Source: Anaerolineae bacterium (GTDB taxonomy: Bacteria > Chloroflexota > Anaerolineae > B4-G1 > SLSP01). Taken from it: a stretch of DNA of 64,000 nt. Below, one piece after another: positions 40,776 to 43,140 of the stretch (the stretch's first letter is position 1; each line of letters begins with the position of its first letter). The DNA lies in contig DAOTXC010000120.1 in assembly GCA_034435555.1 (NCBI GenBank), positions 3,132-67,131 on the forward strand, given 5' to 3'. The notes below the pieces were generated by a model, which saw nothing but the letters and a program-made list of their open reading frames with translations, made no database searches and had not been told where the DNA came from. The position numbers and the translations under genes were made by a program.

Positions 40776-41819
40776 TCAGCCGCTCAAGCCATAGCGCGCC
40801 AACGCAAGCGCCAGAATCTCGTTGATGAGCGTCGCGTGCGAGACGCCCTCCGCGCGCGAGATGATGCACATGTCGCTCACCGCCGGGTTCAGGCCCGGCA
40901 GCGTGTTGATCTCGATCAAATAGGGACGCCCCTCCGCATCCAGGCGAAAATCAACCCGCGCTACGTCAAAGGCCTCGAGCGCCTCGAAGGCGGCTATCGC
41001 CAACGTCCCCAGCTCCGTCGCCAGGGCGTCGGGGATGTCGGCAGGGCAGAGATAGAGCGGCGCTTCGGGATCGTCCAGCGCAAAGGACTTCGCCAGCGCG
41101 TTGTAGACGCCGCCGCTAGCGCCCGCGCTGGCATCCACCTCGAGGACAGGGAAGATGTGATAGCCCTGCGCGTTATAGACGAGCGCGCAGCCCGGCGCAG
41201 GGTCCAGACCCGCATTGCCCACCAATCCCACAGTGAACTCGCGCCCCGGCAGGTACGTCTCCACCAGCGCCGCCTGGCGATAGGTCTCGATCACCCAACG
41301 CACCTGGGCGCGCAACTCGGCCTCGTCGTGGACGACGGAGCGCGCGTTGATGCCCATGCCGGACCCTTCGCGGACCGGCTTCACAAAGAGCGGGAAGGTA
41401 AGTCGCGGGTTCAGCGCCGCTTCGGGGCTGCGAAAACGCTGGAAGGGCGCGGTTGGCAGGCCGGCATCGCGCCAGAGGCCCTTGCAAGCGGCTTTATCGA
41501 GCGAGAGCGCGTTGGTAAGCACTTGGGAACCGGTGTAGGGGATCTTCAACAGCTCCAACAGGGCCGGGACGTGCGACTCGCGCGCGTCACCCGTGATCCC
41601 CTCGGCGATGTTGAAGCAGATGTCCGGCTGCTCGCGGCGGATGGTATCTAGCAACGTGCTATCCGCCTCCAGGAAGAGCGTCTCGTGGCCGGCGGATTCC
41701 AGCGCCGTGCGGATAGCCTGGACGGTCTCCTCGGCGTCATACTCAGCCAGAGCATCCTCCGGCGCGCCGGGCAAGAGTGGTAGACTATGTTTGAGGTTAG
41801 CAATGACCGCGACGCGCAT
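40776..41819 (-). CDS. D-Ala-D-Ala-ligase-family ATP-grasp ligase with non-canonical N-terminus
   Basis: ESHVPALLELLKIPYTGS ... SLDKAACKGLWRDAGLPTAPF ... ATP-grasp C-terminal Mg/ATP residues (EINTLPG). Lacks the Ddl N-terminal GGxSxEHxVS motif. Start at 41819 is 1 nt from the KamA stop. Confidence 0.7.
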   Translation of the reverse strand: MRVAVIANLKHSLPLLPGAPEDALAEYDAEETVQAIRTALESAGHETLFLEADSTLLDTIRREQPDICFNIAEGITGDARESHVPALLELLKIPYTGSQVLTNALSLDKAACKGLWRDAGLPTAPFQRFRSPEAALNPRLTFPLFVKPVREGSGMGINARSVVHDEAELRAQVRWVIETYRQAALVETYLPGREFTVGLVGNAGLDPAPGCALVYNAQGYHIFPVLEVDASAGASGGVYNALAKSFALDDPEAPLYLCPADIPDALATELGTLAIAAFEALEAFDVARVDFRLDAEGRPYLIEINTLPGLNPAVSDMCIISRAEGVSHATLINEILALALARYGLSG

Positions 41820-41820
41820 C

Positions 41821-43140
41821 TCAGGCCACCTCCGCCGCCAGATGAGCTGGCGACATCTGGCGCGCGTGTGCCTCACGCCAGCCCTCCGGCGTCACCTCGC
41901 GCGCGTGGCCGGAGAGCAGCCCCGCGATACCTGCCGGCGACCCCTCCCCCACCCGCGCCTGACAGTAGGCGCAGGTCGCCGGGTCGTGCCGCGTGTAGGC
42001 GTCGGGCTGCGTGTAGGTGCTGATGAAGCCCTCGTAATTGCGCACCACCACCCGGCTATCGGACATGGAGAGCAGGTAGTTCGGCAGCAGCGGAACCTTG
42101 CCGCCGCCTTCCGGCGCATCAATGACGTAGGTGGGAATCGCGTAGCCAGAGGTATGCCCCCGCAGCGATTCCATAATCTCCAGCCCCTTGGCTACCGGCG
42201 TGCGGAAGTGTCCCGCCCCCGGCACGAGATCGCACTGGTAGAGGTAGTAGGGGCGCACCCGATTCTTGACGAGCTTATGTACCAGCGCCATGATGACGTT
42301 GGGGCAATCGTTGATGCCCGCCATGAGCACGCTCTGACTTCCCAGGGGCACACCTGCATCGGCCAACCGCGCCAGCGCGAGCTCCACTTCGGGCGTGATC
42401 TCGCGGGGGTGGTTGAAGTGGATGTTCATCCACACGGGATGGTAGGCGCGCAAGACCTCCACCAGTTCGGCGTCAATCCGCTGCGGCAGGAAGACCGGCG
42501 TCCGCGAGCCGATGCGGATGACCTCAACGTGGGGAATCTCCCGCAGGCCGCGCAGCAGCTTTTCGAGCACCTTGAGCGGCAGCAGCAGCGGATCGCCGCC
42601 GGAGAGCAACACGTCGCGGATTGTGGGCGTGCTGGCGATGTAATCGAGCTGCTGGGCGTAGCTCGCCGCGTTGAACTGCACGTGCGCGTCGCCCACCAGC
42701 CGGCTTCGCGTGCAGAAGCGACAGTAGCTGGCGCATTGCGTCGTCACCAGCATCAAGACACGGTCGGGATAGCGATGGACAAGGCCGGGCGCTGGGGAGT
42801 GGGCATCCTCGCCAAGCGAGTCCACCAGGGCCGCATCGAAGGGAACGAACTCCTGCGCCGTGGGGACGACCTGCCGCCGAATCGGGCAGTTGGGGTCCTC
42901 AGGGTCCATCAGACTGGCGAAATAAGGGGTGACATCAACACGAAAATGCCCCGGTGCGGCCAGTCCTGCCAGTTCATCTGGCGTCAGGCGCAACACCTGG
43001 GCAAAGTCCTCGGCGGTGTTCAGGCGATGGGTCAACTGCCAGCGCCAATCCTGCCACTGTTCCCACGGCACCCCATCCCAGGGATGGGGAGGCCGCTCTG
43101 CCCCAGGGGGCTCCTCTATATCAGCATGTACATTCACCAT
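41821..43140 (-). CDS. kamA: Lysine 2,3-aminomutase family radical-SAM enzyme (KamA/AblA/EpmB family)
   Basis: CASYCRFCTRS CxxxCxxC radical-SAM motif in KamA context. PLP-binding region. 439 aa, which is KamA/AblA size and longer than EpmB. Confidence 0.8.
   Translation of the reverse strand: MVNVHADIEEPPGAERPPHPWDGVPWEQWQDWRWQLTHRLNTAEDFAQVLRLTPDELAGLAAPGHFRVDVTPYFASLMDPEDPNCPIRRQVVPTAQEFVPFDAALVDSLGEDAHSPAPGLVHRYPDRVLMLVTTQCASYCRFCTRSRLVGDAHVQFNAASYAQQLDYIASTPTIRDVLLSGGDPLLLPLKVLEKLLRGLREIPHVEVIRIGSRTPVFLPQRIDAELVEVLRAYHPVWMNIHFNHPREITPEVELALARLADAGVPLGSQSVLMAGINDCPNVIMALVHKLVKNRVRPYYLYQCDLVPGAGHFRTPVAKGLEIMESLRGHTSGYAIPTYVIDAPEGGGKVPLLPNYLLSMSDSRVVVRNYEGFISTYTQPDAYTRHDPATCAYCQARVGEGSPAGIAGLLSGHAREVTPEGWREAHARQMSPAHLAAEVA

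Follow-up and report, generated by a model that had tools for sequence, protein, structure and literature searches.

A short, self-contained operon that turns lysine into a beta-lysine derivative is known from methanogens and some bacteria in the form of the AblA/AblB route to N-epsilon-acetyl-beta-lysine (cited in PMC3543383). In the EpmB/EpmA system, the only known use of beta-lysine in protein modification, the KamA-family aminomutase EpmB feeds beta-lysine to an ATP-dependent ligase, EpmA, a paralogue of lysyl-tRNA synthetase (LysRS). ATP-grasp ligases are met in other settings: among the D-alanine-D-alanine ligases (DdlA, DdlB) and their vancomycin-type (Van) relatives, in LysW/LysX lysine biosynthesis, whose later steps take place on a carrier protein, and in the synthesis (Ngg) of the dipeptide osmolyte N-acetylglutaminylglutamine amide (NAGGN), which uses a GNAT-family acetyltransferase together with an ATP-grasp enzyme. 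Here we describe a locus that joins the two worlds. It lies in a stretch of 64,000 nt of an Anaerolineae bacterium (assembly GCA_034435555.1, contig DAOTXC010000120.1; hereafter the window), and consists of kamA, a lysine 2,3-aminomutase gene, followed after a single base by the gene of an ATP-grasp ligase of Ddl fold, which we call Lig1. We hold it to be somewhat probable that this coupled operon diverts L-lysine into a beta-lysine conjugate, presumably an amide or peptide.

The locus has the same first enzyme as the AblA/AblB route and resembles it in being a short operon leading from lysine to a beta-lysine derivative. Its second gene, however, encodes an ATP-grasp ligase and not an acetyltransferase, and a search of the window by homology to the GNAT acetyltransferase of related loci found no AblB-type enzyme beside the aminomutase. 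The initial annotation had stated that the known partners of beta-lysine-forming aminomutases are not ATP-grasp ligases, and a full-text search, exclusive of the ATP-grasp amidoligase survey (Iyer et al., 2009), returned no description of a KamA + ATP-grasp pairing. Judging from sequence, this is probably a widespread, hitherto undescribed route of beta-lysine metabolism put together from known enzyme families.

kamA and Lig1 make up a translationally coupled operon (Table 1). That a single base separates them, as first annotated, can be read directly from the sequence: the kamA stop codon TGA occupies 41823-41821 and the Lig1 start codon ATG 41819-41817, leaving base 41820 alone as spacer, and a GGAGGT Shine-Dalgarno sequence (41833-41828) sits within the 3' end of kamA, 8 nt ahead of the Lig1 ATG. 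A longer open reading frame (ORF) for Lig1, starting at GTG 41876 (366 aa), was rejected as an over-extension because 20 homologues align from MRVAV and because public gene calls on three contigs with an identical ligase protein give 347 aa. Two plus-strand ORFs that run antisense over the ligase and kamA (40746-41651, 301 aa; 41593-43299, 568 aa) were dismissed as shadow ORFs on the same two grounds, homologue alignment and public gene calls; such frames are typical of sequence with a guanine-plus-cytosine (GC) content of 61%.

KamA carries the Pfam domains Radical_SAM (E = 7e-12) and LAM_C, and its residues 27-422 align with the crystallised lysine 2,3-aminomutase of C. subterminale (PDB 2A5H) at ~63% identity (E = 6.6e-145). 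The radical S-adenosylmethionine (SAM) motif CxxxCxxC is kept (CASYCRFC; C136/C140/C143), as are the lysine that binds pyridoxal phosphate (PLP) (K348 in GGGK, K337 of 2A5H) and the two aspartates that grip the epsilon-ammonium group of the substrate (D304 in YQCD and D341 in VIDAP, corresponding to D293 and D330). The protein narrowly passes the AblA-type equivalog model TIGR03820 (527.2 against a cut-off of 525.4) and stays under the cut-offs for the other aminomutases, namely glutamate (420.7 vs 650), arginine (394.1 vs 600) and EpmB (243.2 vs 369.3). Homology, kept residues and model cut-offs are the reasons why we take its reaction to be that of a true lysine 2,3-aminomutase, a strong assignment by homology which predicts that L-lysine is converted to (3S)-beta-lysine.

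Lig1 is a member of the Ddl family by fold, with the catalytic core kept, yet it departs from the canonical Ddl enzymes. Its Pfam match is to Dala_Dala_lig_C (E = 1.5e-31), the Ddl family and not the RimK family. The nearest PDB sequences are Ddl enzymes (~1e-39), at ~30% identity, followed by VanA (~1e-26) and, far more weakly (1e-7 to 1e-4), by the L-amino-acid ligase BL00235, PurD, biotin carboxylase and cyanophycin synthetase. The matches at E <= 1e-3 include neither RimK nor LysX structures. An AlphaFold 2 model (predicted local distance difference test, pLDDT, 82; predicted template-modelling score, pTM, 0.85) has Ddl structures as its top Foldseek matches, with template-modelling (TM) scores of 0.73-0.85 at 24-30% identity. 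Yet Lig1 falls under every NCBIfam cut-off for Ddl and Van ligases: the best score, for the broadest subfamily model NF002378, is 172.6 vs 243, TIGR01205 gives 145.1 vs 245.65, and the equivalog and Van models all score far short. The view that the ligase is atypical and built on a Ddl ATP-grasp core, put forward in the initial annotation, is thus upheld by the kept catalytic residues, the Ddl fold and the missed cut-offs alike.

To place these differences in the active site, Lig1 residues were mapped onto E. coli DdlB, in a sequence that is consistent with the PDB alignment. All the residues of DdlB that handle ATP, magnesium and the acyl-phosphate (K97, K144, E180, E187, K215, R255, D257, E270 and N272) are kept in Lig1, as K109, K147, E187, E194, K244, R288, D290, E303 and N305. 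Of the DdlB triad E15, S150 and Y216 the serine is retained as well, and so is the serine that binds the carboxylate of the second substrate (S281, Lig1 S315). The rest of the pocket is changed: H63 is replaced by an invariant glutamate (E73), Y216 by S245 and L282 by an invariant aspartate (D316), while the GEDG segment of DdlB gives way to an invariant GDxRES segment with the invariant Arg80 and the acidic D78/E81. In place of the glycine-rich loop GGxSxE(R/H)EVS there is a loop 13 residues longer with a conserved DALAE(Y/F)D motif, in which E26 is ~90% conserved among Lig1 homologues and D28 invariant. The signature formed by E73, R80, E81, the Ser-Asp pair and AEFD is invariant in a cross-phylum set. 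The annotated loss of the N-terminal substrate-1 motif therefore stands only in part: the GGxSxE loop has indeed been replaced, but its glutamate is probably retained in the remodelled loop, since E26, four residues before helix 1, would by position stand in for Glu15 of DdlB. Lig1 would thus be a functional carboxylate-amine ligase whose substrate pocket has been remade and is more acidic, and the acidic residues E73, D78/E81 and D316 together with Arg80 would suit cationic diamino-acid substrates such as beta-lysine.

The Lig1 family is large (4295 matches in 90% clusters). GTDB species genomes hold at least 534 ligase loci, and the best 80, which we examined, are all from Chloroflexota, mostly Anaerolineae. 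In a tree of the ligases of these 80 loci we distinguish three clades: Lig1, which includes the copy of the window; a sister clade that we call stand-alone, which includes the ligases of Anaerolinea thermophila and Thermanaerothrix daxensis and is often found beside the ATP synthase operon; and a deep clade, Lig2, whose members are encoded immediately after Lig1. Directly upstream of Lig1, kamA is present in 32 other Anaerolineae loci. The distance between the kamA stop and the Lig1 start, with start codons chosen heuristically, lies between -8 and +16 nt in 29 of the 35 non-redundant loci, with an ATGA overlap in nine. Because the pairing recurs in 32 other loci with such tight gaps, the adjacency of the two genes is not a matter of chance. 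The pair that had been annotated from this one locus is found in many genomes of several phyla, and the refuting condition set there, a lack of the pair in every relative, does not hold.

In other genomes the pair is part of a larger cassette. For instance, gene calls and Pfam matches in contig L084 give the series LysW-like protein (74 aa), KamA, Lig1, Lig2 and GNAT, and in L085 two LysW-like genes, KamA, Lig1, Lig2 and a GNAT fragment; in other Anaerolineae loci KamA and Lig1 are followed by a protein of histone-deacetylase fold, nearest to the acetylpolyamine amidohydrolases (APAH; 9GKZ, E = 1.7e-87). Contigs of Myxococcota carry KamA, a fused ligase of 789-804 aa with a Lig1-like N-terminal and a Lig2-like C-terminal half, and a GNAT, and proteins in which Lig1, Lig2 and GNAT are fused into a single chain exist as well. 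In a metagenome-assembled genome (MAG) of Deltaproteobacteria, a KamA-family gene stands divergent, back-to-back with a double ligase of the fused kind, and has dapA and dapB as neighbours. Further relatives occur in MAGs of Spirochaetota and Planctomycetales; all the named relatives are MAGs except one RefSeq entry, Vulgatibacter sp. Database names of the cassette proteins are generic ("hypothetical", "ATP-grasp domain-containing", "D-alanine-D-alanine ligase").

The same arrangement was observed in JGI metagenomes, where a profile of the fused ligases (A2) retrieved 567 loci, the best 80 of which were examined. Of the 44 loci whose upstream flank is long enough, 41 have KamA immediately before the ligase and in the same orientation; a GNAT comes after the ligase in 24 of 31 loci and a deacetylase in 7 of 31. 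The contigs span a GC content of 35-73%. The deacetylase is commonly a GNAT::deacetylase fusion; a 595-aa fusion of GNAT and APAH-type deacetylase follows the fused ligase in L124 (Table 1) and in seven other metagenome loci. Such a fusion, able to add and remove an acetyl group, suggests a protecting-group or turnover logic. Our survey of neighbours revealed no gene conserved around the ligase beyond the members of the cassette, and no conserved exporter. The window contains neither Lig2, nor a deacetylase, nor a GNAT homologous to that of the cassette, and is the minimal two-gene core of this wider cassette (kamA, Lig1, Lig2, GNAT, with or without the APAH-type deacetylase).

From these data a pathway can be proposed. 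KamA would turn L-lysine into (3S)-beta-lysine, and Lig1 would then phosphorylate a carboxylate to an acyl-phosphate, the attack of an amine on which would give an amide with beta-lysine as one of its partners. That beta-lysine takes part in this bond is what we infer from the conserved coupling, the gene fusions and the chemistry of the pocket. Candidate products are beta-lysyl-X, X-beta-lysine, beta-lysyl-beta-lysine, or an N-acyl-beta-lysine whose synthesis bypasses acyl-CoA, and the full cassette could form up to two amide bonds (Lig1 and Lig2) and add or remove an acetyl group. The product is most likely an intracellular beta-lysine peptide or amide similar to a compatible solute or a polyamine; we favour such a metabolite because the cassette is self-contained, because no exporter is conserved and because the neighbours in two contigs, L084 and L085, are ion- and osmotic-stress genes (MscS, TrkA, CorA, MgtE, Usp and amino-acid permeases).

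The closest analogies to such a product would be N-epsilon-acetyl-beta-lysine and the ATP-grasp + GNAT route to NAGGN. Full cassettes share a GNAT with the former, but the GNAT of the relatives is not AblB-like, as it gives no match to the AblB model TIGR03827 among the matches listed, its best being a weak match to RimI, and two ATP-dependent amide-forming steps are added. In NAGGN synthesis an ATP-grasp enzyme and a GNAT build an N-acetylated peptide osmolyte, and the cassette too has ligase-GNAT fusions; the cassette differs in using beta-lysine from a radical-SAM mutase and two ligase domains, with no amidotransferase. Of the two kinds of product considered in the initial annotation, we still prefer the undescribed beta-lysine amide or peptide, whereas a cell-wall precursor finds no support: there are no mur or dcw genes around the pair in the window or in related loci, and the cassette occurs by itself in taxa that differ widely in composition.

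Several observations weigh against a free beta-lysine amide as the product. As the window is devoid of Lig2, GNAT and deacetylase, its operon may yield another product than the full cassette does. The idea of an osmolyte is based on neighbours in L084 and L085 only. The stand-alone sister clade, which is from Anaerolineaceae, is 50-57% identical and shares the pocket residues, yet kamA is missing within 6 kb of its genes, and for this reason the dependence of the whole ligase family on beta-lysine is not proven. Lastly, LysW-like genes recur beside Anaerolineae cassettes, which could imply a pathway tethered to a protein rather than a free metabolite.

This last point leads to the rival that survives best, in which Lig1 would ligate beta-lysine (or lysine) to the C-terminus or the poly-acidic tail of a LysW-like carrier, with the later steps carried out on this protein in the manner of LysW/LysX lysine biosynthesis. 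As in that system, many Anaerolineae versions of the cassette encode acidic LysW-like Zn-ribbon proteins (matching Pfam Zn_ribbon_LysW at 52.9 bits, cut-off 27) next to their ATP-grasp ligase: such genes adjoin the cassette at 16 of the 80 loci, frequently as 2-5 copies, and are also present in L084 and L085. In L083, a Lig1-type ligase flanked by five LysW-like copies has kamA nowhere within 6 kb, and in L051 and L052 a LysW-like gene lies directly upstream of the ligase. These neighbours make the carrier pathway a serious alternative for Anaerolineae. We nevertheless consider it unlikely, as no LysW-like gene was found in the 64-kb window or in the Myxococcota loci, the 54 metagenome loci of at least 5 kb yield a single marginal match (E = 5e-4), and versions outside Chloroflexota lack the carriers. 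Moreover, the LysW-like proteins score below the cut-off of the LysW equivalog model TIGR01206 (42 vs 53.2) and end in varied residues (W, L, V, A, S, Y or G) without the conserved EDWGE, and the ligase is of Ddl type and not of RimK/LysX type, as the PDB matches indicate. The net charge of Lig1, tried as an argument against the binding of an acidic LysW tail, was given up, since DdlB of E. coli is just as acidic. Tandem LysW-like genes were observed in L017, L083 and L085 (Table 1); the tails of the LysW-like proteins vary and are mostly poly-acidic, with a conserved non-acidic variant (...FGVRAVF.RGK.GS.F) in L017 and L085.

A more elaborate version, and a slightly more doubtful one, is that the Ddl-like ligases of Anaerolineae use the ribosomally made LysW-like protein as a scaffold, placing beta-lysine once or repeatedly on its C-terminus or on the side chains of its Asp/Glu tail, and that acetyl protection by GNAT and APAH takes the place of the carrier in other phyla. 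If true, this would mean a beta-lysine peptide templated by a carrier protein, or a cyanophycin-like conjugate, and a new amino-group carrier protein chemistry run by Ddl-fold enzymes and a radical-SAM mutase.

Modification of a protein proper, with Lig1 as an ATP-grasp analogue of EpmA that would place beta-lysine on a lysine of elongation factor P (EF-P) or of another protein, appears quite improbable. Some ATP-grasp enzymes (RimK, TTL) do modify proteins, Lig1 has a weak Pfam match to TTL (E = 8.5e-4, under the cut-off), and the precedent of EpmB and EpmA likewise pairs a KamA-family enzyme with a ligase. Here, however, KamA is full-length and of AblA/KamA type, well short of the EpmB model, and the ligase is an ATP-grasp enzyme and not a LysRS paralogue; there is no efp nearby, the one gene of the window with an elongation-factor domain being EF-G-like and 33 kb off, and the conserved Lig2, GNAT and deacetylase would be left unexplained.

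It is harder still to believe that the ligase is the housekeeping D-Ala-D-Ala ligase and that its place beside kamA is meaningless. Its Ddl fold, the Ddl enzymes as nearest solved structures, the name "D-alanine-D-alanine ligase" given to relatives in some databases and the lack of any other ddl within the 64-kb window would speak for such a role. As in Ddl and Van ligases, the residues for ATP, magnesium and the acyl-phosphate are in place, but against it stand the missed family cut-offs, the rebuilt N-terminal loop and the replacement of H63, Y216 and L282 by E, S and D, as well as a context of kamA instead of mur/dcw genes, tightly coupled across phyla, and the fusion of the ligase elsewhere to a second ligase and a GNAT. 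Equally hard to credit is a catabolic role for kamA with an unrelated ligase. KamA-type enzymes do initiate lysine fermentation in clostridia and fusobacteria, but domain annotation (no direct homology search) showed no family expected of the later enzymes of that pathway (kamDE, kdd, kce, kal) among the neighbours in the window and related loci, and the genes conserved with kamA encode ligases together with an acetyltransferase and a deacetylase.

Returning to the beta-lysine amide pathway, the cassette is widespread, with more than 500 loci in each of two collections and several phyla, and the conserved partnership of KamA and a Ddl-fold ligase points to a further uncharacterised beta-lysine metabolite. 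There is also a practical consequence for annotation, in that it would be wrong to label Lig1-type proteins as ligases of the cell-wall or vancomycin type; the family would rather be a natural case of a Ddl scaffold adapted to cationic or beta-amino-acid substrates. Being an operon of two to four genes, the system is directly amenable to heterologous expression.

We also came across Ddl-like genes in other settings. A second fused double ligase, whose C-terminal half is 36-43% identical to Lig1, is followed by a Peptidase_S58 gene (DmpA family) with no kamA nearby in L089, L092 and L093 (Table 1), and looks like a second uncharacterised Ddl-like system. The Peptidase_S58 (DmpA) family includes beta-aminopeptidases such as BapA, and given this membership the peptidase partner would fit beta-amino-acid peptides. 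In L090, a 331-aa homologue of Lig1 is found in a phage-like block with a large terminase, ParB-like proteins, 3'-phosphoadenosine-5'-phosphosulfate (PAPS) reductase and glycosyltransferases.

At the edges of the operon, RNA folding predicts two hairpins. One, in the kamA leader between the upstream 126-aa gene and kamA, has an 11-bp stem followed by a UUUAUCUUU tail (minus strand, 43168-43203 with the tail) and lies ~35 nt ahead of the kamA start codon; it may be the terminator of the upstream gene or an attenuator. Accordingly, either kamA relies on read-through past this hairpin, as with an attenuator, or its leader is shorter than usual. The other, beyond the ligase gene, is likely the 3' end of the operon. 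A regulatory RNA upstream of kamA was considered and dropped, as an Rfam scan of 39000-45500 returned zero families at E <= 1, and a scan for consensus promoters and terminators gave nothing exceeding shuffled expectation.

Table 1. Coordinates of the features discussed, in the 64-kb window and in related loci
Sequence	Feature	Coordinates	Strand	Details
Window	kamA, L-lysine 2,3-aminomutase by homology (radical SAM / PLP)	43140..41821	minus	439 aa
Window	Lig1, predicted Ddl-fold ATP-grasp carboxylate-amine ligase	ATG 41819..40776	minus	347 aa
Window	Coupling junction	41820..41833	minus	GGAGGT ribosome-binding site, kamA TGA, 1 spacer base
Window	kamA leader	43141..43295	minus	GGAGGGAG ribosome-binding site (43153-43146), terminator-like hairpin (43177-43203), U-rich tail
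Window	Hairpin between convergent Lig1 and histidine-kinase genes	40728..40756	minus	13-bp stem, -27.7 kcal/mol, z = -3.0
Window	126-aa protein	43296-43676	minus	InPase 24 bits, Pyrophosphatase 20.7 bits, both under cut-off
Window	Two Ser/Thr protein kinases, then FHA-ABC transporter fusion	43702-51094	minus	
Window	Aldehyde:ferredoxin oxidoreductase, then small ThiS-like protein	33815-36250	plus	713 aa (oxidoreductase)
Window	GAF-PAS adenylate/guanylate cyclase and hybrid histidine kinase	280-6317	minus	621 aa and 1383 aa
L017	Tandem LysW-like genes	3301-4168		
L083	Tandem LysW-like genes	5326-5942; 7337-8475		
L085	Tandem LysW-like genes	7935-8544		
L124	GNAT::APAH-type deacetylase fusion	7490-9277		595 aa
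L089	Fused double ligase + Peptidase_S58	676-3811		
L092	Fused double ligase + Peptidase_S58	3181-6368		
L093	Fused double ligase + Peptidase_S58	8001-11432		
L090	Lig1-like homologue in phage-like block	7417-8412		331 aa

Among the other genes of the window, the 126-aa gene, only weakly similar to inorganic pyrophosphatases, was found beside kamA, within the loci examined, only in copies of the window genome (L001 and L002). Upstream of it come the two tandem Ser/Thr protein kinases, the second of which (928 aa) has NosD/beta-helix repeats, and then the FHA-ABC transporter fusion, a 969-aa ORF that measures 845 aa on the public contig. Near the aldehyde:ferredoxin oxidoreductase (AFOR) and the ThiS-like protein that follows it, the public contig has a ferredoxin-like gene. 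Towards the start of the window, the cyclase adjoins the hybrid histidine kinase, which combines GAF, PAS, HisKA, HATPase and receiver domains.

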